Origin: a virus
Taxonomy: Duplodnaviria > Caudoviricetes
Reading direction: 5' to 3' (one strand)
Virus record (IMG/VR): IMGVR_UViG_3300043772_000816
Span: 1-39,137 of that record
Length of the DNA stretch: 39,137 bases
Shown here in pieces: positions 58 through 22,496 of this stretch (position 1 is the first letter of the stretch; the number at the start of each line of letters is the position of its first letter). The notes under the pieces are model-generated. The model worked only from the letters and a program-made list of their open reading frames with translations. It made no database searches and had not been told where the DNA came from. A program made the translations under genes and the position numbers.

Positions 58-564
58 ATGAAACTAGAGACCATCTCGATTCAGTCGCTATCGCAAGACC
101 CGGCGAACCTCCGGAAACATTCGGAGCGGAACCTCGACGCGATTGCGGCGTCGCTTCGGAAGTTCGGTCAGCAGAAGCCGCTGGTCGTCGACCGCAACAA
201 CGTCGTGCTCGCGGGTAACGGGACGCTTGCCGCCGCGAAGGCGATTGGGTGGACGGAGATTGAAATTGTTCGGAGCGACCTGACTGGCGTTGGCGCTACG
301 GCGTTTGGGATCGCCGATAACCGAACCGCTGAGCTTGCCGAGTGGGACGAGAAGCTTGGCGAAGTCCTCGCGTCCTTAAAGGAGGAATCGTTTGACCTCG
401 CCGATATCGGATTCAACGAGGACGATCTTGCGCGGCTTACGCAAAGCGTCGCAGGCGAGGAGGAGGTCGCGCCTCCGGAAGACTTCCAAGAGGTCGACGA
501 GAACATCGAGACGGAACACGAATGCCCGAAGTGCGGTTACAAATGGAGCGGTAAACCGTCGTGA
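58..564 (+). CDS. ParB/Srx-like N-terminal domain protein with acidic linker and C-terminal CxxC knuckle
   Basis: DPANLRKH...SLRKFGQQKPLVVD...LAGNGTLAAAK...ADNRTAELAEWD is the ParB-like domain common beside phage DNA methylases; ends HECPKCGYKW; overlaps the next gene (GTGA). Confidence 0.85.
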   Translation: MKLETISIQSLSQDPANLRKHSERNLDAIAASLRKFGQQKPLVVDRNNVVLAGNGTLAAAKAIGWTEIEIVRSDLTGVGATAFGIADNRTAELAEWDEKLGEVLASLKEESFDLADIGFNEDDLARLTQSVAGEEEVAPPEDFQEVDENIETEHECPKCGYKWSGKPS

Positions 565-1622
565 CAAAGCCGCCGTATCGCGTACCAAGTATGGAGGAGG
601 TACGCGCCCTCCCTTGGAACGGCTTTACTTGCGCGAGTACCTTCTCGGGATGCGGAGGAAGTTCGACCGGCTACCGGATGGCCGGGTTTAAGGTAGTCTG
701 GGCGTCGGAGTTTATCGATGCGGCGCGCGAGTGTTACCGGACAAACGCAGCGGCTCATACGGTTGTAGACGGGAGGGATATCCGAAGCGTAACGGCGGCT
801 GACATCCTACGAGATACCGGACTGAAGGTTGGCGATCTCGACCTGTTCGATGGATCGCCTCCGTGCGCCTCGTTCTCTACAGCTGGTAAACGGGAGGCGG
901 GTTGGGGCAAGGTTAAGAAATACTCCGACAAATCGCAGAGAACTGACGACCTCTTCTTCGAGTTTTCGAGGCTCCTGCGCGATCTACAGCCGAAGGTTTT
1001 CGTCGCCGAGAATGTCAGCGGGTTAGTTAAGGGAACCGCAAAGGGTTACTTCCTCGATATCCTTAAGGAGTTAAAGTCGTGCGGCTATCGAGTATCGTGT
1101 CGGGTACTCGACGCGCAATGGCTCGGAGTCCCGCAGGGAAGGCAACGAACAATCTTCGTCGGAACGAGGAACGATTTGCGGATCGATCCCGTACACCCGA
1201 AGCCTTTGCCGTATCGGTTCACGATTCGTAACGCGATCTTCGACGCTCCCTTGAAGAATCGTATCGAGCCCGAATCGAGTATGGAACGACACGCGACCGG
1301 GCGTGAGTGGGATCGGATGGGAGGACCGGGAACGCAATCCGACAAATACTTTCAGCTTGTTCGTCCGAGCCTCGACGAACCGTGCCCGACCGTTACCGCT
1401 GCGGGAGGTAACGCCGGACTCGCGAGCGTTTGTCATCCTCTTGAGAAGCGTAAGTTTTCTATCGCAGAACTAAAGCGGCTTTGCGGATTTCCAGACGACT
1501 TTATTTTGACCGGAACTTACGCTCAGCAATGGGAGCGATGCGGACGAGCCGTGCCTCCGGTAATGATGAGTCATATTGCTGGCGCCGTTCGCGACGAGAT
1601 TCTGAGGAAACTTGGAAAATGA
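561..1622 (+). CDS. DNA cytosine-C5 transferase (C5-MTase fold), predicted carboxymethyltransferase
   Basis: Motif I FSGCGG, catalytic GSPPC (C102), ENV (E150), motif VIII QGRQRTIFVG, motif IX RKFSIAELKRLCGFPDDF; motif X reads GRAVPP (R329) instead of GNAVPP. Confidence 0.92.
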   Translation: MTKPPYRVPSMEEVRALPWNGFTCASTFSGCGGSSTGYRMAGFKVVWASEFIDAARECYRTNAAAHTVVDGRDIRSVTAADILRDTGLKVGDLDLFDGSPPCASFSTAGKREAGWGKVKKYSDKSQRTDDLFFEFSRLLRDLQPKVFVAENVSGLVKGTAKGYFLDILKELKSCGYRVSCRVLDAQWLGVPQGRQRTIFVGTRNDLRIDPVHPKPLPYRFTIRNAIFDAPLKNRIEPESSMERHATGREWDRMGGPGTQSDKYFQLVRPSLDEPCPTVTAAGGNAGLASVCHPLEKRKFSIAELKRLCGFPDDFILTGTYAQQWERCGRAVPPVMMSHIAGAVRDEILRKLGK

Positions 1623-2402: not shown

Positions 2403-3068
2403 ATGAAAATCCCGAATGATTGGACCTTTAATAGCGCCGAGATTGCGGACGCTTTCGACCATCACGTTCGAGAACAACTCCCGTGGTATGACCTAACGAC
2501 TAACCTTGTCGCGCATATTGCGCGGCATTACATTCCCGAGGGAGGACGAGTCTACGATATCGGAGCGTCGACCGGAAACATTGGGCGCTCGATCTCCGAC
2601 ACGCTAGAAAAGCGCAAGGCGGAGTTTATCGCAATCGAATCCTCGAAAGAGATGTGCGAGAAGTACGCCGGACCTCCGCGCGTCGTTTGCGAGGACGCCT
2701 GCAGTTTCGAGTACAAGAGTTTCGATCTCGCGATCTGCTTTTTGGTTTTGATGTTTATGACTCCGAACCAGCGGGCGGAACTAATCCAAAAGCTGCAGCG
2801 GATGTGTAGGCTTGGAGGCGCAATCGTGATCTTCGATAAGCTACAGCCGGTCTCTGGATATCCGGCGACCGTTCTCTCGCGTCTTACTATCGCCGGGAAG
2901 GTAGCCTCGGGAGCCGAGCCGAAAGATATCATCGCGAAGGAACTCTCGCTTGCGGGCGCGCAGCGCCCTCTCGCGCCCTCCGAAATACCTCTCGGCTCAA
3001 TCGAGGTGTTCCGTTTCGGAGAGTTCGCAGGCTATCTTTGGCAGCAGAAATATCCGACCGCTGGTTAA
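2403..3068 (+). CDS. cmoA: CmoA-like carboxy-S-adenosylmethionine synthase / class I SAM enzyme
   Basis: [24 protein letters not shown] resembles CmoA [33 protein letters not shown] SAM motif; LVLMFM...R; [17 protein letters not shown]. Confidence 0.8.
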   Translation: [221 protein letters not shown]

Positions 3069-3069
3069 T

Positions 3070-3738
3070 ATGACCGACGACTCGCCGAGTCATTCCGATA
3101 TTCTCGCGAAGGCTAACATCGCGAACATAACCAAGAAGCTCAAAGCGGGTCGGACGCTAACGACCGCCGAGCGCAAAGCGCTTTCCGATTTTGAGTCACA
3201 GCAGACCGGGAACTGGGCTAAGGACTTATCGGCGCTTGCTCGCGAACTCGGTCTGTCTCGTCAGGCTATCTACGATGCGAGAGCGCGTTTCCCGAACGAA
3301 GCTCCGAAGAAACACCCTGACGGAAAGCGGGAGAACATAGAGGCGTGGAGGCAGTTTTGTTCGCAGCGATTAGTCGGCAAGGACGTCGCAACTCAAACGC
3401 TCGCCGATCTAAAGGCGCAGCTAATGCAGCGCGAAATTAAGCTGCGCGATATGCGAATTGCGCGAGAGTCAGGAGAGATGATAGACTCGGAGATCGTCGA
3501 CGAAATGCTCGGCACGCTAGCGCAAAAGCTCGATCTGCTTCTTCGTTTGAAGCTAGAGGTCGAGCTCGGTCCGCGAGTCGCGGGCAAGACAGCGGCGGAG
3601 GCGAACCTCGAAGGACGCACGATCCTCGACGAAATTCGGGACGTCGTAAACGCCAACATTGCTACGTTCCAAAACGAGGCGATCCGGCAGACGATACGTC
3701 AGGACGATGACGAGAGCGGAACAGACCGGGTCACGTAA
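3070..3738 (+). CDS. terS: Terminase small subunit (Nu1-like, HTH plus coiled coil)
   Basis: ATG 3070; HTH LSALARELGLSRQAIYDAR, then coiled coil LKAQLMQREIKLRDMRIARESGEMID typical of Nu1-like proteins; lies upstream of a GpA terminase. Confidence 0.7.
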   Translation: MTDDSPSHSDILAKANIANITKKLKAGRTLTTAERKALSDFESQQTGNWAKDLSALARELGLSRQAIYDARARFPNEAPKKHPDGKRENIEAWRQFCSQRLVGKDVATQTLADLKAQLMQREIKLRDMRIARESGEMIDSEIVDEMLGTLAQKLDLLLRLKLEVELGPRVAGKTAAEANLEGRTILDEIRDVVNANIATFQNEAIRQTIRQDDDESGTDRVT

Positions 3739-4189: not shown

Positions 4190-4339
4190 ATGACAAACAT
4201 CCTCCCTCCCGCCCTCCGAAGCAAGAAGCGGTCCGACTTCAACCTCGTCACGCACGGCGCGATGAGCCGCGAAGAGTATCTCCTCAAGTGGTACCGCGTC
4301 GAGGAGTCCCTCCGGAAGCAGACCTCCAAGAAGCTTTAA
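4190..4339 (+). CDS. Hypothetical protein (49 aa)
   Basis: ATG 4190 just after a putative promoter; C-ending codon usage like neighbouring genes. Confidence 0.5.
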   Translation: MTNILPPALRSKKRSDFNLVTHGAMSREEYLLKWYRVEESLRKQTSKKL

Positions 4340-4362
4340 CCTTAGCCAACCCAATCACGACA

Positions 4363-4620
4363 ATGTTCTTCGCCATCAAGACCAAGCTCATTCCCGCTAC
4401 CGATACCCGAGGCACGGCGCTTAAAGCCGCCGTCGTTGGAGAAGCCGGTCAATGCGGACGTCCCGCCACGATCTCCTACAATTACGAACTCTCGACGAAG
4501 GAAAATCATTCAGCCGCGCTCGCCGCCCTTCGGGCTATGTACCAGATGCCGCTGACCAGCGAGTTGGTCGGCTCTACCGCCTGCGGACGCGGCGAGATGA
4601 TTCACCTCTTCAAGCGCTAA
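4363..4620 (+). CDS. Hypothetical early phage protein
   Basis: A/C-rich leader then MFFAIKTKLIPATDTRGTALKA, resembling a recurrent phage family (I.TK..P.T.TRG.R.KA). Confidence 0.65.
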   Translation: MFFAIKTKLIPATDTRGTALKAAVVGEAGQCGRPATISYNYELSTKENHSAALAALRAMYQMPLTSELVGSTACGRGEMIHLFKR

Positions 4621-4649
4621 CAAGATTCCGCAAAATACATCTCGACACT

Positions 4650-4663
4650 CCGAACCGCTTCGG
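4650..4663. promoter_or_regulatory. 14-bp palindromic operator-like site CCGAACCGCTTCGG
   Basis: Near-perfect inverted repeat starting 2 nt after a -35-like TCGACA (4642-4647), the same spacing as the 4160 copy. Confidence 0.5.
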
Positions 4664-4713
4664 TTCTCCTCTCATAAGTTCAGTACGACAACGCAACCAA
4701 AACCCAACCGACA

Positions 4714-4980
4714 ATGACCACCAAGATCATCCAGACCCTAGCTGACTCCCGCGACGAGAAACGCGCCGCCGACGCGCGAGCCGAATACAACGACGCCCTC
4801 CGCGCCCGCATCGAGCGCGACCGGCAGGAATACATTCAAGCTCGTCTCCGCGAGTACCCGCAGATCGGAGTGCTGAACAGCGGCAAGTTCTACGCCTACG
4901 TCGGAGGCTACTCCCAGACCAACTACGTCGAGGGCTACTTCCTGACCAAGATCATCGATGCCATTAACTCTGCCAAGTAA
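4714..4980 (+). CDS. Hypothetical protein (88 aa)
   Basis: ORF with A/C-rich leader and strong coding-like codon bias. Confidence 0.7.
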   Translation: MTTKIIQTLADSRDEKRAADARAEYNDALRARIERDRQEYIQARLREYPQIGVLNSGKFYAYVGGYSQTNYVEGYFLTKIIDAINSAK

Positions 4981-4998
4981 TCCAAAACCAATACGACA

Positions 4999-6075
4999 AT
5001 GACCACGAACCTAATGCAAGCCTCCGCCCAATGGGCGTCCCGTCCCGCCGACCAGCGCTTTAAGACGCTGGCCGATCTCCGAACCTCGGTGCACAACCGC
5101 CGGATGGTCTCGCGCTCCGTCGACCTCCCGCTGACCCGCATCCGCGCCGAGGAGCGCAACGGCAGCATCATCCTTAACAGCGGCATCGCCGCCTGCGAGC
5201 CGAGCCACTGGAGCTTCGGTCAGTTCTCTTCGCTGATCGGCGCGCCCGCAAATTACCTCCGCAAGCTGCCGACCGATCTTGCCGTCAGCTGCATTAACAG
5301 CGGGATCGACCGCGCCTCGCGCGAGGAGGTCAAGTTTATGACTATCGCCGATCAAAGCGGCGAGCGCGCGAATACCCTGCAGGCGGTAACGAGCCCGACC
5401 TATGGCCGAATCTGGGACGCCGATTGCGTCGACGCCGTCGGGCGGATCGTCGAGCGGACTAACGGGAAGTTCTACAACCCGCTTGCCTATGACCGTCACA
5501 CCGGAGCGCCGGTCCCGTCCGGTCTCTACGCGAGCGACCGCGATGTGTTTATGTTTATGATCGACGGCGGCTCCCGGCTCGAAGTCGGACGGCGCGCCAA
5601 GCTCAATCGCGGGTTCTTCGTCTGGAACAGCGAAGTCGGCTCGAAGACCTTCGGGCTAATGACGTTCCTCTTCAACGAGGTCTGCGGCAATCATATCGTC
5701 TGGGGCGCGCAGAATATTAACAAGCTCGTCATCCGTCACTCCAAGTTCGGTCCGGCGCGCTTCGACTCCGACGCTGCGCCGATGCTGCAGCAGTACGCTG
5801 AGGCGTCTATCGCGAACGACGAGGCGACTATCAAGCGCGCGAACGAGAAGCTGCTCCCGAGCGGAGACGAACTCGACACGCTACTGGCTCCGTTCAAGTT
5901 CACGAAGGCAGAGACTCGCGAAGCGATCTCCTGCGCGATCAAGGAAGAGGGAGAGTGCCGCACGCTCTGGGATTTGGTGCAGGGCTACACCGCCTATGCT
6001 CGGGACTTCGACTTCGTCGACGCGCGAATCGATTTAGAGAAGCGCGCCGGTCAGCTGCTGAATCTGGTCGCTTAA
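4999..6075 (+). CDS. DUF932-family protein
   Basis: ASAQWASRPADQRFKTL, YGRIWDAD, LYASDRDVFMF, RGFFVWNSEVG, VCGNHIVWG, IRHSK, RIDLEKRAGQLL are typical DUF932 motifs. Confidence 0.85.
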   Translation: MTTNLMQASAQWASRPADQRFKTLADLRTSVHNRRMVSRSVDLPLTRIRAEERNGSIILNSGIAACEPSHWSFGQFSSLIGAPANYLRKLPTDLAVSCINSGIDRASREEVKFMTIADQSGERANTLQAVTSPTYGRIWDADCVDAVGRIVERTNGKFYNPLAYDRHTGAPVPSGLYASDRDVFMFMIDGGSRLEVGRRAKLNRGFFVWNSEVGSKTFGLMTFLFNEVCGNHIVWGAQNINKLVIRHSKFGPARFDSDAAPMLQQYAEASIANDEATIKRANEKLLPSGDELDTLLAPFKFTKAETREAISCAIKEEGECRTLWDLVQGYTAYARDFDFVDARIDLEKRAGQLLNLVA

Positions 6076-6120
6076 GGGTTAATCGAGCCCTCCTTCTGGG
6101 AGGGCTTTATTTAGCCCTTA
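6073..6120 (+). other. Long internal-loop RNA hairpin (copy 1)
   Basis: TAAGGGTTAA/TTAGCCCTTA outer stem and AGCCCTCC/GGAGGGCT inner stem; spans from the DUF932 stop codon to the A of the next ATG. Confidence 0.7.
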
Positions 6121-6308
6121 TGCATCCCGAACCTACCATACAGGCATCGCCTGTCTCCGAGCTACCGCCGGTCAATCTCTCGCAGTACGCGCGTCTGCTC
6201 GGGCGCCGAGGCGGCGCGGTTAAGTCCGAACGGAAGACGCTCGCCGCGAGGAAAAACGGAGCGCTCGGAGGACGCCCGAAGAAGGAACCGAAGCCCGCGA
6301 ATGAGTGA
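6120..6308 (+). CDS. Small basic KGG/AT-hook-like protein (62 aa)
   Basis: LGRRGGAVKSERKTLAARKNGALGGRPKK; ATG 6120; overlaps the terL start. Confidence 0.65.
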   Translation: MHPEPTIQASPVSELPPVNLSQYARLLGRRGGAVKSERKTLAARKNGALGGRPKKEPKPANE

Positions 6309-8097
6309 GGTCGAGGCGCGTCTCGGACGCCGATTCGTTTTTCCGAGACCGGATCGCGCTCCGATTTACGAGTGGGCGCGGAGGCATATTGTCCTTCCGG
6401 AGTCCTACGCAACTAGCGGACCGTTTAACGCGAAGATCACGCCGTGGCTGATGCCGATCTTCGACGCGCTCCAAGACCCGCTGATTCGGCGCGTACATTT
6501 CCGCAAAGCCGTGCAGATCGGCGGAACCTTGGTCGCCGACATTTGGATTCCTTGGCTTATCTGCAACGACGCCGGTCCTATCTCTTGGACGATGCAGACA
6601 GACGAAATGGTCGAGAAACATTGTAAGTCTCGGCTTAACCCGCTCCTCGAACGTTGTAAGCCGGTCGCGAGGCTACTACCAAAAATGGGACCGCAGAGGA
6701 CGCAGACCGAGATTTATTTCGGCGGGTTCTTTCTGACCCTCAATCCGGCTAATATCAGCACGCAGCAATCTCAGTCGATCCGGTACAAGGTGAACGACGA
6801 GATATGGCTCCCGAAGTGGCAGGACGTTTACGGTCACGCAATCGCTCGCGTATCGAAGTTTGAGGAGGTCGGACGGAGTAAGGTGTACAACGTCTCGCAA
6901 GCAGCCGTAATGGATGCGGAAACGGGTAACGTCGAAGACCTTTCCTACAGGAGCGGCGACCAACGCGAGTGGATGGCCGAATGTCCCGCGTGCCACAAGC
7001 TGCACGAAATCTCGTTTCTGAAGCGAGATGGGCGCGACGTCGTCGGCGGCGTCGTGTGGGATAAGTCGGCGAAGCGCGAGGACGACACCTTTGATATCCA
7101 GCGCGCCGTCGAGACTTGCCGCTTCCGCTGTTCGCACTGCGGGCACGAATCGCCTGACGAGGAAAGGACGCGCGCCGAGTGGCGGAAGACCGGCAGATTT
7201 GTCGCGACGAATACGCGCGCGCCGAGGGAACTGGTATCCTTCCGAATCGAGGCGCTTGTGAGTCGACCGATGAAGCTCCTTGTCGAAGAGTTTTGCGAGG
7301 CGCATAACCACGCCATCCGAGTCGGCGATACGACTTCGATGCAAGAGTTCCGAACCAAGCGCGAAGCTAAGCCGTGGCTAATGGAGCGGCGCGTGCTGAA
7401 CGTCTTCGTCCCGAAGGGAGATTACGCGGTAGCTGACTACGATAAGGGACAGCCTATGCCGAACGAGGTACTGCGGATGATGGCTATCGACAGGCAGCTA
7501 GATCACTGGTGGGTCGAGATCGGAGCCTTCGCCAACGAGCCGCGCCAGCACTACCGGCAGTTGTATTTCGGGCGCGTCGATACGCGCGCAGGGCTACGGC
7601 TTCTCCAGAAGCGGTACAAGATTCCGGATCAATGCGTGGCGCAGGACAGAGGCTACCGACCCGCAGATGTCGATCACGACTCAGCCGAGTTCGGGTGGCG
7701 TTCGATGCGTGGCTACGGGCGACGGACTTGGGCGCTACGCGATGACGCCAGCGGACAGGTAATTAACTTCCCGTTCTCCGAGCCGCACGTATCCGACTTC
7801 AGAGGAGGCGACGTCTACTTCTACAACTTCAGCGGCGATTACTTCAAGGACGTCCTTCAGACCGCGCTAGAGAACAAAGGCGATCTGCGGTGGGAACTCC
7901 CGAGCGATGTCAACCCGCTGTACCTAGAGCACCTTAAAGGCGAAGCCAAAGTCGAGGTTAGGTCGGGCGTTTGGGAGTGGCGCGAGGTAAAGCACAACGC
8001 GCCCAATCACGGTCTCGATACCAGCGCGATGCTGCTCTGTATGGCGACCATCGCGAACGTCTTCAAATACGTTCCGCCCAAAGAGGTAGCCCAATAG
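6301..8097 (+). CDS. terL: Terminase large subunit, lambda GpA family
   Basis: EWARRH...GPF...TPW, KAVQIGGT (GpA-type Walker A), YKVNDEI Walker B, GDQREW..ECPAC...RCSHCG zinc region, C-terminal NHGLD nuclease motif. Confidence 0.93.
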   Translation: MSEVEARLGRRFVFPRPDRAPIYEWARRHIVLPESYATSGPFNAKITPWLMPIFDALQDPLIRRVHFRKAVQIGGTLVADIWIPWLICNDAGPISWTMQTDEMVEKHCKSRLNPLLERCKPVARLLPKMGPQRTQTEIYFGGFFLTLNPANISTQQSQSIRYKVNDEIWLPKWQDVYGHAIARVSKFEEVGRSKVYNVSQAAVMDAETGNVEDLSYRSGDQREWMAECPACHKLHEISFLKRDGRDVVGGVVWDKSAKREDDTFDIQRAVETCRFRCSHCGHESPDEERTRAEWRKTGRFVATNTRAPRELVSFRIEALVSRPMKLLVEEFCEAHNHAIRVGDTTSMQEFRTKREAKPWLMERRVLNVFVPKGDYAVADYDKGQPMPNEVLRMMAIDRQLDHWWVEIGAFANEPRQHYRQLYFGRVDTRAGLRLLQKRYKIPDQCVAQDRGYRPADVDHDSAEFGWRSMRGYGRRTWALRDDASGQVINFPFSEPHVSDFRGGDVYFYNFSGDYFKDVLQTALENKGDLRWELPSDVNPLYLEHLKGEAKVEVRSGVWEWREVKHNAPNHGLDTSAMLLCMATIANVFKYVPPKEVAQ

Positions 8098-10553: not shown

Positions 10554-13500
10554 ATGGAAACCAAGCAGCAGATCGACCACCTCATTGAGCTTGCGATTGT
10601 TCAGCGCGCCGAACTCAAGCGGCTCGTTGAGCAGCTTCCGATCCTTCGGACGTTCCTGCTGGAGCAGATCAACGCGACCATCGAGGATATGGAGCCGCAA
10701 CTGCGCTCCGATCTGATCGAGTTCTGCGACGAGAAGACGAACGGGAAGATCGAGGACATCCGCAACTTCTTCTCCGAGGCAAAGGGCGAGTTCGCAAAGA
10801 AGAGCGAAGCCTTCTTCATCGAACTAGAGAAGGGCGTGCAGGCTCGGTACGCGCAGTTGGCGGCGGAGCGTGCGCTCGTCAGCGACTTCGCAGAGGATGC
10901 TCGCAAGGGACTGGAAGTCGCAGCACAGCAGGAGGCGGCAAAGATTCCCGGCCAAGTTGCAGAGTTGGTAAAGACGGAGCTTGCTCGGTTCCCGCGCGCC
11001 GGGGAAATCGATCAGCTTCGGAAGGAGTTCGCCGAGCCGAAGGGACTGAACCCGCGCGGCAAGTGGAGCGCGAGCGAGACGTACAACAAGCTCGACCTCG
11101 TCGCGTTCAACGGCGACTCGTTCGTGTCGAACATCGACGGGAACACCGAGAAGCCGGGACGCAACAGCAAGGTCTGGACGCTTTCGGCGGCGCGTGGATC
11201 GAGCGTAGGTGGCGGCGGGATCACCTCGCTCAACGACATTTACGGCACGCCTGCGGAGGGCGAGTTGCTGATCGGCAACGGAAGTTCCTTCGTGAGCAAC
11301 ACGCTCACGGCTGGCGCGAACGTCACGATCACGAACACTCCCGGCAACATCACCATTTCGGCTACGGGTGGTGGCGGCGGCGGCGCGGCTGAGACTCTGA
11401 CCGCTTCCGTTGTGAACGCCGAGAGCGTCGCGATCACAAAGGGCCAAGTGGTCTATCTGTTCGGCGCGACTGGCTTCCGGCCCTCGGTCAAGCTGGCGTA
11501 CAACACCAGCGACGCGACCTCGGCAAAAACGTTTGGCGTAGTCTCCTCGGCTAGCATCGCAGCGAACGGAATCGGAACTGTTACCTGTGTCGGCGTAGTC
11601 GATGGGCTTAACCTTGGAGCGTACAACGAAGGCGATACCCTGTACCTCGGCGCGACTCCCGGCTCGTTCACGGCGACCAAGCCGTATGCGCCGAACCATC
11701 TCGTCTACGTCGGCATCGTAGAGCGCGCAAACGCCGGGAACGGCGAACTGTATGTCCGAGTCCAGAACGGCTACGAGCTAGACGAAATCCACGACGTTCT
11801 GATCAGCAGCCCGACCAACGGTCAGGTGCTTGGGTATGACTTCGCGACGAGCCTCTGGAAGAACAGCAGCACGGCGACGCTGAGTGCGGTGACGGGACCG
11901 ACCTCGACCAACCTTACGCTGACTGGCGGGTCAAGTGGCGCGTCGCTGGTGCTAGGTCAGGGCGCAAATAGCAACGTAACGATCACGCCTCCCGGTACGG
12001 GCGAAATCCACATCGGCACGCAGATGCGGATTTACCCGACCGTTAATGGGTATGCGTCATTTGGTGGGGACGTAGTGCTTGGAACGTATTCGAATCACTC
12101 GGTTAATTTTTATCAGAATGGTGGAGAGAAGGCGCGGTTTAGCACCGGAGGCAACCTGCTGATCGGAGGGTTCACCGACATTCCCGGCAGCGGTGGGCTC
12201 AAGGTCTATGGCACAACCAACTCGTCGAGCGCCATCACGGGTTCGCTGCTCGTCGGCAACGGCACTAACGGTGGCTTGGGCGTTAGCCAAAACATCTACG
12301 CTGGTGGCGACATCGTAAGCACCAAGTCCAACGGGACGGTGAAATCTAGCGCGACGAATGCCAATGCATCGGTGGCTGCGGAACGTCTAGGAACGTCGCC
12401 GTCTTCCGTGTCGCTGATCGGAGCGGTCTCGCAGCCTCAACTTTCGTTCGCCTCGGACACGGCGGCGTCGTACACTTGGGGACGCATCCTGTCCAACGGC
12501 TCGGAAATCGTTCGGGTCTACAATGCAAACCTTGGGTCGATTGCCGACGTAGCTGGGTCTGGCATCGCGGTATCGGGTGGCATCAACAGCACGGGCACCG
12601 TCACCGCCAACAACTTTGCGCTCGGCACCGGAGGTCCGTCTGTGGCTGCAACGCAGAACGCGCGCGCGTCGCGGCAGGGATTGATCTCGCAAGGAACGTC
12701 GAGCGCCAATGTCGGAACTTTCGCCGCGTTCGGCACGGGAGATTACACGGCACAGGTTTGGGTGCGGCTTACTACGCCGACTGCGGCGAACGTCTTTCTG
12801 CGGATCGGTCAGGGCGGTATCGCGCAGTCGTGGGAATTTGGCACCACCGACTCGACACCGGCAGGACGGTTGTGCGTGCGGAATGCCAATGCTGGGGCAC
12901 AGCTTTTCGGCAGCACGATATTGCAGGCAAATACCGTGTATTGCGTGACTGCGGTGCGCGCGTCCGGCGTTACGACGATCTATCTTAATGGCTTATCTGA
13001 TGGATCGGGCACGTTAGCAACCGACTACACTAACGCTATTGGCGGACTGACGGTAATGCCGTCTGCTGGATTTATCGGAACGCCGTTGATCTACAACCGC
13101 GCCCTTTCCGCTGCCGAAGTGCGCGCGCTGTACGAGTCGGGTGCGCCTGCGGATACGGATTACAACAACGCCAACAATACCACCAATCTCGTAACCAACG
13201 GAGACTTTTCTTCGGCTACTGGATGGACGGTCCCTGCCGGAGTTTCGATTACCGGCGGTCAGGCGGTATTTACCGCTGCACCCGGCGGCGCACTTTTCAC
13301 TCAAGTGGCGCAAACGGTAGGCCGACGCTATCGTTGTACCTACACCATCTCTGGCCTATCTGCTGGTGGAGTGCGATTTTTCCTAGGCGGTACAAGTTCG
13401 GGCACCGCAGTTGCGCCGACTCGTACTGCAAACGGAACGTACATCGAGGAAATCACGGCGGTAGCGATCACCGGAATTGCTGTTGGCGGGATCGATATCT

Positions 13501-16259
13501 CGTCGCCCAACTTCACCGGCAACGTAGACAACATCTCCGTCTATCCCATCGGGCTGATGCTCGCTCCCGACGCCAACCAGCCGGGTAGCGGGAACCTGTG
13601 GTACGACACCTCTGGGAACAGCGCAACCATCACGCTTCCAGCCAGCGGCGTTAATTGGAACGTGCGGACGAGCGGTTACAACCCACAGGTCTCGTCGGTC
13701 AATGGCAGCTTGGGATTCATTGCCCGCAACAATAGTCAGGGCAACGCGGCGGTTGCCGCCATCGACCTACAGAACGAGTTCGGAGCGTCCTATGGGTTTG
13801 GTATGCGTTACTTCGGCAACAGCTTTACCCAAGTAAACGCCTACCGCGCCAACCGTGGTCTCTTGTACGGAGCGTTTGACCTCAACTTCCTGTCCGGCCA
13901 ATACAAGTTTTGGTTCGGCACGACAGGTGCCGCCATTGATAACTCGACTGCTTACGAGGGCTTCAACATCTACGGGCCGTCGATCAACAGCGGGACCGTT
14001 ACCGTTCTGTTTACGACGCCATCCTCCGCATTCGGCACCGGCGCGTTGATCGTTGGCGGTGGTGCTAGCTACGGCGGCGCGATCTTCAGTCAGCAGAACA
14101 GCAACTCCATCGTCACCGGGACGAACATTGCCAACACGAACCAAGGCACGGCAGCGACGCTGCGCCACACGCTGACGGCAGGGACGAACACCAGCACCAT
14201 CGAGGCGTACAGCAACGGGCACGCGACGTTCCCCGGTCGCCTGCGGTTCGGCACGCCCAACGGGCAGATGGACTTCGTTCCGTCTGGCGTGCTCGGGATG
14301 AGCGTCTCGGCGTCGGGCGTCACGGTGCCGAATCCGCTGACGGTCAGCGCAACCTCTGGCGGATCATTCATTGGTGACGGTGGCGCGGCAGTCGCTTCGC
14401 GGCAGCTTACGGTCCGCAGCATCAACGGGTCTGCGTTCCGTACCGTCGCGTCGTTCGTCAACGACATCACCGGCGCTGGAGCAACGACCAGCATTGAACT
14501 CATATCGGATGGCGTCACCGGACTGGCTCAAGTGTTCGGGCCTACCTACGGTACTGCGGCCTACGCTAACGGCGCGTTCCTCGTAAACGGTGCCGCCAAT
14601 GGTGTGGTCGGCTTGTCGGCTCACGGCGCTGGTGGGTTTATCCGCTTCGTCCAGCAGGCGTTCGGCAATGAGGTCGCACGGTTCGCGCCGACGAGCGCCA
14701 ACTTGCTGATCGGCGGCACGACAGACATTGCTGGGAGCAGCGGGCTTAAGGTCTTCGGAGGTACTCAATCTGTAGACAACATTAGCGGCGCGCTTCAAGT
14801 TGTGGGTGGGGTAGGGATTGGCGGTAACATCAATATGGGTGGCCGGTTGTTCGTGAACAATACCGGCGCCGCTAATGGAGCGTTGAGTGCGTCTGCCGTT
14901 GTTGCGACTTTCGGTGCAGATGCGACTTTAGGAGGGCTGAGCTTTAACGTTAAGGGATTCCCGTCAGCTACCGCCGGGAGCCGCTATGTCCAACTGACTG
15001 CGGCTGATACCCTCGATTTCCGCGAGCTTCGGATCAATGATCTAGGAGGTAACGTAGGGATCGGTGGTTCCAGCAGCACGATCACCGTAGGCGGAACGCT
15101 CATCGCCAACGCTGCGACCAACGCCTTCCGCATCCCTACCGCGCAGACGCCCGCCTCGCAGACGGCGTCCGGCACGCAGGGCCAGATCACTTGGGACGCC
15201 TCGTACCTGTACGTCTGCACCTCGACGAACAACTGGGGACGTAGCTCGCTCAACTGGGCAGGCGGCGGCGGTGGATCGTCCGCGCAAGTGGACACGTACA
15301 CGACCACGGGCTCGGTGCTTAGTTGGACGAAGCCTGCTGGCGCCAAGATGGTGCTGATCGTCTGCCTAGGAGCCGGTGGCGGTGGCGGAGGCGGATGTGG
15401 TGGTGCAGCCGGGACGGCACGTAACGGTGGCGCTGGTTCTGGTGGCGGCGCACGAAACGAGGTCTGGGTGCGTGGCGATGATATGCCATCGACGGCTTAC
15501 GTTATCGTAGGTGCGGGCGGCGCTGGCGGCGCGGGTGGCGTATCTGGGTCGGGATCGGTAGGATCGGCGGGAGGAAACTCGACGGTTGCGCGCAACAACA
15601 CCAGCCCTCCGACATCCGGCATCCTCCTATTTGCTGGCGGTGGCGGTGGCGGTGGCGGTGGTGTATCGGGCACGGCGCAGGGCGGCGGGTCTGGAGGTGG
15701 TACGGCTGGCGCGGGATCGTCTAATCCGAGTTCGGCAAATCTGGCTGGCGGCGCTCCAAATGGATTCTCTGGCATTACGATGCAAGTGACCGGCGGTGCT
15801 GGCGGCTCGGGACGAAGCTCCGAAAACGACGGCGGAAGCGCGGAGTGGGGCGGTGGCGGCGGCGGCGGTAACCGTCAAGGCTCGGACTTCTCAGCGCGGG
15901 CCGGTGGCGATTCAGTCCACGGTGGAGGCGGTGGCGCGTGCGGAAGTGGCGTAAGCGCGGCAAATAACGGGCAGGGCGGAACGAACGCAGGTACGTCTGG
16001 GTTCTGGGGTTCGGGTGCTGGAAGCGGAACTAACGGAGCTACCGGAGGAACTGGAACTGCTGGTGATGCCTACACTCTGACGGGCAACGGCGGTGGCGGC
16101 GGCGGTGGCGGTGGTGCTGGTACTGGCGGAACTGGAGGTACTGGCGGCGCCGGTGGTCTTGGCGGCGGTGGTGGCGGTGGTGGCGGTGGTGGAACCTCGA
16201 CCGGCGGAACTGGCGGCGCTGGCGGCAATGGCGTCGTGATCATTACAACTTACTTCTAA
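10554..16259 (+). CDS. Giant virion fibre / adhesin (coiled coil, carbohydrate-binding-like, LamG-like and Gly-rich regions)
   Basis: 1901 aa; helical N-terminus, RGKWSASETYNKLDLVAFNGDSFVS, LamG-like YTAQVWVR...IYLNG...IYNRALSAAEVRALY, C-terminal WTKPAGAKMV...GAGGGGG...GVVIITTYF. Confidence 0.8.
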   Translation: METKQQIDHLIELAIVQRAELKRLVEQLPILRTFLLEQINATIEDMEPQLRSDLIEFCDEKTNGKIEDIRNFFSEAKGEFAKKSEAFFIELEKGVQARYAQLAAERALVSDFAEDARKGLEVAAQQEAAKIPGQVAELVKTELARFPRAGEIDQLRKEFAEPKGLNPRGKWSASETYNKLDLVAFNGDSFVSNIDGNTEKPGRNSKVWTLSAARGSSVGGGGITSLNDIYGTPAEGELLIGNGSSFVSNTLTAGANVTITNTPGNITISATGGGGGGAAETLTASVVNAESVAITKGQVVYLFGATGFRPSVKLAYNTSDATSAKTFGVVSSASIAANGIGTVTCVGVVDGLNLGAYNEGDTLYLGATPGSFTATKPYAPNHLVYVGIVERANAGNGELYVRVQNGYELDEIHDVLISSPTNGQVLGYDFATSLWKNSSTATLSAVTGPTSTNLTLTGGSSGASLVLGQGANSNVTITPPGTGEIHIGTQMRIYPTVNGYASFGGDVVLGTYSNHSVNFYQNGGEKARFSTGGNLLIGGFTDIPGSGGLKVYGTTNSSSAITGSLLVGNGTNGGLGVSQNIYAGGDIVSTKSNGTVKSSATNANASVAAERLGTSPSSVSLIGAVSQPQLSFASDTAASYTWGRILSNGSEIVRVYNANLGSIADVAGSGIAVSGGINSTGTVTANNFALGTGGPSVAATQNARASRQGLISQGTSSANVGTFAAFGTGDYTAQVWVRLTTPTAANVFLRIGQGGIAQSWEFGTTDSTPAGRLCVRNANAGAQLFGSTILQANTVYCVTAVRASGVTTIYLNGLSDGSGTLATDYTNAIGGLTVMPSAGFIGTPLIYNRALSAAEVRALYESGAPADTDYNNANNTTNLVTNGDFSSATGWTVPAGVSITGGQAVFTAAPGGALFTQVAQTVGRRYRCTYTISGLSAGGVRFFLGGTSSGTAVAPTRTANGTYIEEITAVAITGIAVGGIDISSPNFTGNVDNISVYPIGLMLAPDANQPGSGNLWYDTSGNSATITLPASGVNWNVRTSGYNPQVSSVNGSLGFIARNNSQGNAAVAAIDLQNEFGASYGFGMRYFGNSFTQVNAYRANRGLLYGAFDLNFLSGQYKFWFGTTGAAIDNSTAYEGFNIYGPSINSGTVTVLFTTPSSAFGTGALIVGGGASYGGAIFSQQNSNSIVTGTNIANTNQGTAATLRHTLTAGTNTSTIEAYSNGHATFPGRLRFGTPNGQMDFVPSGVLGMSVSASGVTVPNPLTVSATSGGSFIGDGGAAVASRQLTVRSINGSAFRTVASFVNDITGAGATTSIELISDGVTGLAQVFGPTYGTAAYANGAFLVNGAANGVVGLSAHGAGGFIRFVQQAFGNEVARFAPTSANLLIGGTTDIAGSSGLKVFGGTQSVDNISGALQVVGGVGIGGNINMGGRLFVNNTGAANGALSASAVVATFGADATLGGLSFNVKGFPSATAGSRYVQLTAADTLDFRELRINDLGGNVGIGGSSSTITVGGTLIANAATNAFRIPTAQTPASQTASGTQGQITWDASYLYVCTSTNNWGRSSLNWAGGGGGSSAQVDTYTTTGSVLSWTKPAGAKMVLIVCLGAGGGGGGGCGGAAGTARNGGAGSGGGARNEVWVRGDDMPSTAYVIVGAGGAGGAGGVSGSGSVGSAGGNSTVARNNTSPPTSGILLFAGGGGGGGGGVSGTAQGGGSGGGTAGAGSSNPSSANLAGGAPNGFSGITMQVTGGAGGSGRSSENDGGSAEWGGGGGGGNRQGSDFSARAGGDSVHGGGGGACGSGVSAANNGQGGTNAGTSGFWGSGAGSGTNGATGGTGTAGDAYTLTGNGGGGGGGGGAGTGGTGGTGGAGGLGGGGGGGGGGGTSTGGTGGAGGNGVVIITTYF

Positions 16260-20193: not shown

Positions 20194-21900
20194 ATGCGCG
20201 TTTCACTCTGTGTCATCTGCGGGAACGAGGAGCAGCTTATCGTTCGGATGCTGAACTCCTTCGACGGAGTCTTCGACGAGTTGTCGATCACCCGAGCAAT
20301 CGGCAGCGCTAAACCGGATGGCACTATCGGGCTGGCCGAACTCTGGTGCAAGGAGCGCGGCATCGCTTGCGTGGTCAGTGAGTACCGCAACGGAGTCGGA
20401 ACCGAAGGCTGGGATCACGTCGACGATTTTGCTGCGGCGAGGAACCTCGCGTTTCAGAACGGCACGGGCGACTGGCTGATCTGGTGCGATTGCGACGACA
20501 AGTTCGCTGGCGATGCAAAGGCGTTCCGCGAACAACTGGAGAAAGCCGCCGCAGATCGGGCGATGGTGCGGTGCCTGTACGATGTGCAGGGCACGGGAAA
20601 GAAGCTGTACCGGGAGCGAGCGATCCGTCGCGATCTCTACCAGAAAGGTAGAAAGTGGCACCACTCGGTTCACGAAAATCTGCTGCTGCTTCAAGGCGAC
20701 CGGCACGAAGACTGGGAACAACCCGTCTGGCTGCACGCACCGCTGGAGGTTAAGAAGGAGAACCGGAAGCGTAATCTCCGAATCCTAGCGAACTCGGTAA
20801 AGGAAGTCGCGACGCAATATTTCTACATTCACCAAGAACATTTCTGCTCGGGCAACCGGGACGCTGCCGTAGAGTTCGGCAAGGTCGCTCTGGCTTTCCC
20901 TAATCTACAGCCAGCGTTCCGGTACGAGACGCTGCTGAATTTGGCGAAGCTCAGTACGTCGAGGCGGGATTCCAACGTATGGTTGATGGAGGCGCACGGC
21001 ATCTATCCGTGGTGCCGCGAAGCAATCGCCGCTCTCGTCCTCCTGCACTTCGAGTTCAAGGAATATGAGAAGGCAAAATACTGGGCGGACCAAATGGCTT
21101 CGATGCGAGAACCGTTGCCCAAGGACCGACCGTGGACGCACGAAGTGAAGTGGTACGGCTGGGCGGGATACGACCTGTACGCGCGCGCCTGCCGAGCGGT
21201 CGGGAACCGCGCTGCAGCTGATCTCGCGCAGTGGCAATATCACGCAGGCGCAACTCCGAAGATCAGCCTGCTTCACGCGACGCGAGGACGCCCATCGAAG
21301 GCGGTGCAGACGCGAGAGGCGTGGCTGAACACGGCGTCAGACCCGACTCGGGTTGAGCACATCTTCGCCATCGACCTCGACGACAAGACTTCGGTCGAGA
21401 TGGGCAAGCAGTTCTCGACCTATCTCAGCCCGAAGCAGAGTTGCGTATCGGCGTGGAACGGCGCCGCTCGGATGGCGCGCGGAGAGCTACTGGTGCAGCT
21501 TTCGGACGATTGGATGCCAGTGCGCGGCTGGGATCAGTTGCTGCTTAACGCCTGCGAGGGCGTCGATCTGAACAAGCAGCCGGTCGTCGTGGCTATCTCG
21601 GACGGACACCGGAAGGATGATCTTCTGTGTATGGCGATCCTCTCGCGGGCACGCTACGAGCAGCAGGGTAACGAGGTATTCCACGAAGGCTACGAGTCGG
21701 TCTTTTCGGATAATGAGTTTTCGTACCGCGCCGCGCGGGACAAGGTCATAATCGACGCTCGGTCTTGGCTAACGTTCGAGCACTGCCATCCCTGCTTCAA
21801 CAAGGCGCCGATTGATGCAACGTATCGACACAACAACCAGCAGGCGCGATATGAAGCGGGCAACGCTCTCTTCCGTAGCCGCAACCCAGACGCTCCCTAA
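20194..21900 (+). CDS. Two-domain glycosyltransferase (GT2 - TPR-like - GT-A)
   Basis: RVSLCVICGNEE...DDFAAARN...GDWLIWCDCDD...W...VHE (GT2), helical repeats, then a second domain KISLLHATRGRP...AWN..A..ARGELLVQLSDDW...FSDNEF. Confidence 0.88.
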   Translation: MRVSLCVICGNEEQLIVRMLNSFDGVFDELSITRAIGSAKPDGTIGLAELWCKERGIACVVSEYRNGVGTEGWDHVDDFAAARNLAFQNGTGDWLIWCDCDDKFAGDAKAFREQLEKAAADRAMVRCLYDVQGTGKKLYRERAIRRDLYQKGRKWHHSVHENLLLLQGDRHEDWEQPVWLHAPLEVKKENRKRNLRILANSVKEVATQYFYIHQEHFCSGNRDAAVEFGKVALAFPNLQPAFRYETLLNLAKLSTSRRDSNVWLMEAHGIYPWCREAIAALVLLHFEFKEYEKAKYWADQMASMREPLPKDRPWTHEVKWYGWAGYDLYARACRAVGNRAAADLAQWQYHAGATPKISLLHATRGRPSKAVQTREAWLNTASDPTRVEHIFAIDLDDKTSVEMGKQFSTYLSPKQSCVSAWNGAARMARGELLVQLSDDWMPVRGWDQLLLNACEGVDLNKQPVVVAISDGHRKDDLLCMAILSRARYEQQGNEVFHEGYESVFSDNEFSYRAARDKVIIDARSWLTFEHCHPCFNKAPIDATYRHNNQQARYEAGNALFRSRNPDAP

Positions 21901-22496
21901 TGCACCGACCAGCCATCTCCGTCCTGATACCGGCGACGCCGCGCCGGATCGTTAGCTGTTTGTGTCCTCTGCTCTCTACGCTAGAGGCGCAGATCACAAA
22001 GCTGGAGAATCCGCAGGCGGTCGAGGTACTGACCTTTCTCGATAACCGGATGAGAACTATCGGCGAGAAGCGAGACGCGCTGGTGCAGATGTCGCGCGGC
22101 GAGTTCGTCGCATTCTGCGATGATGATGATCTGGTATCCGACGACTACCTCCAGCTGCTAACCGACACCATCGCGGTCGCGTCGCGTCGGACCTCGGTCA
22201 TCACCTTCGATCAACGCGCCATCGTTAACGGAGTCGAATCCATCTGCTCCTTTTCGCTTCGGCATCCGAACGAGCCATTCAAGCAGCCATCATTCAAGCG
22301 GAGCGCGTGGCACGTATGCGCGTGGCGTGGCGATATGGCTCGGCGGGTTCGGTTCCCTGCGAACAACTACGGCGAGGATTGGGCGTGGGCGAAGCATCTA
22401 GTGATGGACGCAACCGGAGAAATCCACATCGGGAAAGTGCTGCACACCTACCGATACGACGATCAAGTCTCCGAGGCGCCTCCGCCGAGCAGCTAA
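21900..22496 (+). CDS. Glycosyltransferase family 2
   Basis: ISVLIPA, TIGEKRDAL...RGEFVAFCDDDD, YGEDWAW, LHTYRY. Confidence 0.88.
   Translation: MHRPAISVLIPATPRRIVSCLCPLLSTLEAQITKLENPQAVEVLTFLDNRMRTIGEKRDALVQMSRGEFVAFCDDDDLVSDDYLQLLTDTIAVASRRTSVITFDQRAIVNGVESICSFSLRHPNEPFKQPSFKRSAWHVCAWRGDMARRVRFPANNYGEDWAWAKHLVMDATGEIHIGKVLHTYRYDDQVSEAPPPSS

Follow-up and report, generated by a model that had tools for sequence, protein, structure and literature searches.

Does a C5-cytosine transferase with Arg in place of Asn in motif X use Cx-SAM rather than SAM, and so carboxymethylate DNA rather than methylate it? This question is raised by one gene in the window, i.e., the whole virus record of 39,137 bases analyzed here, which includes terminase, portal, head, and tail genes. 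An earlier note on this DNA had claimed an Arg in motif X of an enzyme with otherwise intact catalytic motifs, and the translation bears out both points. Motif X reads CGRAVPP, with Arg329 encoded by CGA (Table 1). The usual Asn is present in the SAM-dependent enzymes compared, namely M.HaeIII and DNMT1 (GNAVP) and Escherichia coli Dcm (GNSV, N436), in line with the GNAV/GNSV that the note gave as the usual reading. Motif I FSGCGG (F28), E50, D73, motif IV, motif VI ENV (E150), and motif VIII Q-R-R (R194 and R196) are intact. When aligned with SpCmoX, Cys102 (codon 864–866) matches C98 at the position of the catalytic nucleophile, and Ala103 (codon 867–869) is at the HhaI Q82 position. In canonical C5-methyltransferases such as HaeIII and Dcm, the catalytic Cys is followed by Gln and motif X has Asn; the window enzyme instead has Ala103 and Arg329. 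Sequencing error or chance was ruled out as the source of Arg329. The residue is present in 72 of 80 related viral loci, including an independent contig (L001) with 99% identity. Moreover, it is found in 119 of the 120 best protein matches (the remaining one was not parsed) and is thus a family trait.

Table 1. Coordinates of the cassette genes, the motifs discussed, and the terminase genes in the window.
Feature	Position	Strand	Basis or remark
ParB-like (PF02195) protein, 168 aa	58..564	+	GTGA overlap with cmoX start
cmoX, C5-cytosine transferase, 353 aa, GTG start, predicted Cx-SAM-dependent carboxymethyltransferase	561..1622	+	PF00145, E 1.9e-55
Motif IV, DGSPPC, and Ala103	849..869	+	Translation; alignment to SpCmoX
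Motif X, CGRAVPP, residues 327–333	1539..1559	+	Translation
Arg329 codon (CGA), motif X	1545..1547	+	Equivalent of SpCmoX R350 / HhaI N304
cmoY, short asparagine-synthetase-like ATP-dependent amide ligase, 260 aa	1619..2401	+	PF00733, E 1.5e-9; SpCmoY 90/248
cmoA-like, predicted Cx-SAM synthase, 221 aa	2403..3068	+	TIGR00740 and 4GEK best matches
ORF, probably terminase small subunit	3070..3738	+	Position alone; family match none
terL	6301–8097		Genome family search

The CmoA-CmoX-CmoY system of Synechococcus phage S-B43 was published in December 2025 (Yang et al., Nat Commun 2025;17:281; PMC12783734). According to that report, Cx-SAM is the product of SpCmoA, 5-carboxymethylcytosine is formed at GC by SpCmoX, and glycine is then ligated by SpCmoY. 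In the SpCmoX structure 8YF3, Arg350 takes the place of HhaI Asn304 and is in contact with the carboxymethyl moiety of Cx-SAM (PMC12783734). Among the 48 PDB sequence matches of the window CmoX, 8YF3 is the best (E 1.9e-67; next 3.4e-23). It is also the top match in a profile search and in a Foldseek search with an AlphaFold model of the window enzyme (E 1.1e-29; model pLDDT 90.7). The two proteins are identical at 145 of 327 positions (44%), and F25, E47, F48, D69, C98, and R350 of SpCmoX correspond to F28, E50, F51, D73, C102, and R329 of the window enzyme. R329 aligns with R350 and motif IX–X is ungapped, whereas the variable target-recognition region (about residues 207–262) fails to align. 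The window enzyme also has both SPPC and Arg, which form the CmoX filter of Yang et al. These similarities support the earlier reading that R329 may bind the Cx-SAM carboxylate. Based on the sequence comparisons, ORF 561–1622 is very probably a phage CmoX that likely carboxymethylates cytosine C5 in phage DNA, with Arg329 as the predicted carboxylate binder.

The locus is likely a further member of the published CmoX system rather than a discovery. It adds one member to a system of which the residue, its role, and the mining marker have been known since December 2025. The engineered M.MpeI N374K, which the earlier note cited as a precedent, is real (PMC12015181), and Yang et al. have already drawn this parallel (PMC12783734). 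The one-residue mining marker proposed in the note does track cmoA, as described below, but its novelty is rejected; Yang et al. had already described the residue, what it does in the structure, and how it serves in mining, having retrieved 5,615 homologs by SPPC and R350 (PMC12783734). The near-identical contig L001 and other contig ids gave no match among the entries of their source-data file examined, which include no IMGVR ids. As for the proposed Asn/Arg swap, the equivalent SpCmoX R350N accepts neither SAM nor Cx-SAM, while the wild type accepts Cx-SAM only (PMC12783734). Arg is therefore needed, but a mutant that is dead with both cofactors indicates no simple, reversible one-residue switch.

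The cassette has the gene order parB-cmoX-cmoY-cmoA and is linked throughout by overlaps or 1-base gaps. An ATGA overlap joins the cmoY start to the cmoX stop, and the ORF that follows the cassette begins 1 base past the cmoA stop. The window CmoY has the ATP-binding domain of Asn synthetases (PF00733) without a glutaminase domain. It is 36% identical to SpCmoY and keeps the SSGIDS, KKTxFEC, and HxNLQLG motifs as well as the size. Because this CmoY is of the short SpCmoY type rather than glutaminase-fused, the amine that it joins is likely glycine or another amino acid, with glycine favored.

The protein encoded by 2403–3068 matches TIGR00740 with an E value of 4e-17 and 62.6 bits, under the 193.3-bit cut-off, and its best PDB match is E. 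coli CmoA (4GEK, E 2.4e-12). It is identical to SpCmoA at 46 of 206 positions, and across SpCmoA and two further CmoA homologs from phages its identity is 22–24%. The positions of Tyr39, Asp62, Gly64, Lys185, and Lys198 of E. coli CmoA are kept, but Glu180 stands at the position of Arg199, the carboxylate-binding (salt bridge) residue of the E. coli enzyme (PMC3663124). R160, E180, and Q187 are invariant in all 63 representatives of the window-type CmoA clade. In the alignment, Glu is likewise found at this position in SpCmoA, which is active. Furthermore, the same slot of Arg-type clusters is filled by a window-type CmoA in some cases and by an Arg199-type one in others, suggesting that the two types are interchangeable. 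Because of this shared slot and the Glu in SpCmoA, the 2403–3068 protein likely works like CmoA, as judged from the alignments, although it fails the bacterial TIGR00740 tests. It is classed here as phage CmoA-like and not as a member of bacterial CmoA.

For the co-occurrence of motif X residues and cmoA, loci were collected by viral-contig scans with the three window proteins and an Asn-type relative, plus 10 named phages. The 203 transferase ORFs of at least 280 aa form 109 clusters at 90% identity (five shorter pieces were dropped). A cmoA is present in the locus of 81 Arg clusters, one more contains a frameshifted copy, and three have none; by comparison, cmoA is found in 0 of 22 Asn clusters and 0 of 2 Met clusters. 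A search for the ligase at the Asn clusters also gave 0 of 22. Asn-type relatives with 52–65% identity to the window enzyme carry neither CmoA nor ligase. When the count was restricted to loci from the transferase query with at least 2 kb of downstream sequence, cmoA is near all 54 Arg clusters and near none of the 21 Asn clusters, which agrees with the enrichment anticipated in the earlier note, the clusters being related rather than independent. In whole-record searches, cmoA is absent from the complete genomes of one Asn-type and two Met-type phages, and none was found in nine Asn-type contigs that are 30–86% complete.

Among the three Arg exceptions, one is a 22%-complete fragment and two are Erwinia jumbo phages with a cmoA about 13 and 19 kb away. 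In these two phages, Arg foretold a distant cmoA, which supports the claim that the motif X residue informs apart from the gene neighborhood. The Arg-type CmoX of Erwinia jumbo phages L085 (KY448244.1) and L087 (MZ475898.1) contains an intein-like insert at the catalytic Cys (SPP/C). Two other SPPC-type transferases, L088 (KX190833.1) and L089 (OY731433.1), have Met at motif X and Ser after the catalytic Cys; these are the two Met-type phages whose complete genomes lack cmoA.

The phylogenetic basis of this association is narrower than the counts suggest. In a quick unrooted tree of all 109 rows, Asn needs four changes, of which the starred branches force only one; in an unrooted tree of 49 chosen rows, three changes are needed and two are forced. 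An AU test on these 49 of the 109 rows did not reject a single Asn clade (p 0.505). Independent Arg/Asn switches were sought in these trees and were not demonstrated, and unrooted trees give no direction. Because a single Asn clade is not rejected and the Asn types are found in few clades, the counts are not phylogenetically independent. The association between Arg and cmoA may rest on one to three events, such that a Fisher p value overstates it.

By analogy with the S-B43 proteins, a pathway may be proposed for the window. The CmoA-like protein would make Cx-SAM from SAM and prephenate. Cys102 of CmoX would attack cytosine C6, which would accept the carboxymethyl group bound by Arg329 in a pocket made wider by Ala103 in place of the Gln of SAM enzymes, and 5-carboxymethylcytosine would be released. 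The short CmoY would then adenylate the carboxyl and attach an amino acid, with glycine as the most likely one. Such a DNA modification would likely serve as defense against host nucleases.

Other explanations differ in which cofactor is used. An enzyme that uses both SAM and Cx-SAM, producing a mixture of 5mC and 5-carboxymethyl-C, has some precedent in the engineered Asn-to-Lys variants M.MpeI N374K and M.MedI N377K, which still methylate with SAM (PMC12015181), and only one natural CmoX has been assayed. However, wild-type SpCmoX takes only Cx-SAM (PMC12783734), and the window enzyme lacks the Gln at the Q82 position, the loss of which lowers methylation in M.HhaI Q82A (PMC10666283). Dual use is therefore improbable. 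Alternatively, the CmoA clade without Arg199 may make a different acidic SAM analogue, or the final base may be unlike that of S-B43. The invariant residues specific to this clade fit such a difference, and some ligase clusters may use other amines (PMC12783734). Yet SpCmoA shares the Glu and still makes Cx-SAM, and the window CmoY retains the motifs and size of the SpCmoY type; another amine joined to this carboxymethyl handle would remain compatible with carboxymethyl transfer by CmoX. We consider this alternative very unlikely.

It is also conceivable, at a hardly appreciable probability, that the window enzyme is an ordinary SAM methyltransferase in which Arg binds SAM, and that its neighbor is a divergent SAM methyltransferase rather than a Cx-SAM synthase. 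The low identity of the window CmoA to its phage homologs and its lack of Arg199 are in line with this explanation. DNMT3A and DNMT3B are weak profile matches to the window enzyme, with no motif X alignment visible, and we take DNMT3A R891 to be at the position equivalent to HhaI N304. In simulations, Arg891-Trp893 of DNMT3A contacts SAM (PMC9072302). Because a SAM enzyme has these residues at the cofactor, a motif X Arg probably has no diagnostic value beyond the CmoX family. Within the family, however, the slot shared by window-type and Arg199-type CmoA, the lack of CmoA and ligase in the Asn relatives, and the carboxyl handle required by an amide ligase all argue against an ordinary methyltransferase and for a Cx-SAM-dependent enzyme.

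A second pocket site may contribute to cofactor choice. Q82 and N304 together shape the HhaI cofactor pocket and have long been used to widen it (PMC10666283). The residue after the catalytic Cys is A103 in the window enzyme and S99 in SpCmoX. Among 84 Arg clusters, this position has Ala (62), Ser (18), Lys (3), or Gln (1), whereas the 22 Asn clusters have Gln (19) or Val (3). The covariation of residue 103 with motif X suggests a two-site switch. A specificity that needs both sites would explain the dead R350N mutant, and the covarying pocket residue is thus a testable reason for the loss of activity. If such a switch exists, changing both positions is predicted to restore SAM use, and close natural Arg/Asn pairs permit a clean cofactor-switching study. 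A more tentative idea, which we regard as possible but rather doubtful, is that the switch has been flipped back in the relatives with Asn and Gln/Val (52–65% identity); these would have reverted to methyl transfer, with loss of both cmoA and the ligase. Q82, S99, and motif IV gave no match in the main text of Yang et al. (PMC12783734), and the logo in Fig. 8e of that paper may show the position.

The target sequence was sought from site avoidance in the window genome, and no consistent motif was found. ACCGGT, ACGCGT, CCGCGG, CGGCCG, CGTACG, CTCGAG, GCCGGC, and GGATCC are all absent (0 vs. 16–34 expected; 27 for GCCGGC), as is TGCGCA (0 vs. 15), and CGATCG occurs twice (59 expected). CATG (about 83 expected), TATA, and CCWGG are also absent from positions 1–39137; CATG is not avoided in L092, the next-closest relative. 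Such strong avoidance of restriction sites suggests that the host has many restriction enzymes. GC-containing sites are avoided in some cases and not in others. Because a shield like that of S-B43 would make avoidance of GC/CG sites unnecessary, the modification in the window is probably not a blanket GC shield, and the target of the enzyme may differ from GC. With its new variable region, such a CmoX could provide a carboxymethyltransferase of another specificity for DNA labeling and methylation sequencing.

Several other regions of the window are of interest. A short block (4288–6308) lies between the probable small and the large terminase genes, and a 358-aa ORF within it (4999–6075) belongs to phrog_1362, a family of unknown function. 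Past the portal gene, a 1,901-aa ORF (10554–16259) has no Pfam or PHROG match. Two glycosyltransferase genes (20194–21900 and 21900–22496) directly follow the major head gene and are more likely to be involved in glycosylation of the virion than of DNA.

The scans also recovered related lineages. One Arg-bearing lineage (L222, L225–L229, L231–L235, and L240; e.g., L222:1703–2743) has GGFPCAT and ERCGRAVTV, and a C5 transferase at L241:4051–4998 has FPCQD and AGRSICVP. These transferases all carry the Arg, are about 31% identical to the window protein, adjoin cmoY and cmoA, and fail the SPPC filter. The Arg-bearing GFPC lineage shows that the published filter undercounts the family. In addition, a window-type cmoA occurs without a C5 transferase at 30 of the 56 loci that the window CmoA retrieved (within L094–L130). 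At such loci (e.g., L094:2105–3616; also L243–L261), cmoA is beside parB, a gene for a 504-aa ParB-fused protein, and a small phosphatase-like gene. The 504-aa protein has DFGAG and SVLNSVPF motifs and was read as amino-methyltransferase-like. A cmoA is present at all 19 further loci of this protein, several of which are the same contigs. From these motifs and neighbors, the protein is a candidate N6-adenine or N4-cytosine carboxymethyltransferase, a kind of enzyme that Yang et al. report not having found (PMC12783734).

Compared with known systems, E. coli CmoA, the Cx-SAM synthase for tRNA cmo5U (4GEK and 4IWN), is the best PDB and NCBIfam match of the 2403–3068 protein. However, its partner is CmoB, whereas the partner of the window protein is a DNA C5 transferase, and Arg199 is replaced by Glu180. 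M.MpeI N374K and M.MedI N377K resemble the window enzyme in that a basic residue substitutes for the Asn of motif X, with a proposed salt bridge to the Cx-SAM carboxylate (PMC12015181). They differ in that the residue is an engineered Lys and the enzymes are CG-specific and still SAM-using (PMC12015181), whereas the window enzyme has a natural Arg together with Ala at the Q82 position. The closest cultured relatives are Streptomyces phage TurkishDelight (gp122–125; NC_073473.1) and Pseudomonas phage PaBG (KF147891.1), both with the motif X Arg and with cmoA and a ligase nearby; their CmoX proteins are 63% and 50% identical to that of the window, respectively. The TurkishDelight ligase is glutaminase-fused, unlike the short CmoY of the window. 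Finally, S-B43 (MN018232.1) is a 214-kb cyanophage with the gene order A-Y-X, whereas the window phage has 39 kb, 59% GC, and the order parB-X-Y-A; the variable regions are unrelated, and the window CmoA belongs to a distinct clade (22% identity). Nevertheless, the two phages share the same three genes, SPPC with the motif X Arg in CmoX (44% identity), a short CmoY without a glutaminase domain (36% identity), and a CmoA with Glu at the Arg199 position, and the ParB neighbor in the window is also found at many of the loci reported by Yang et al. (PMC12783734).
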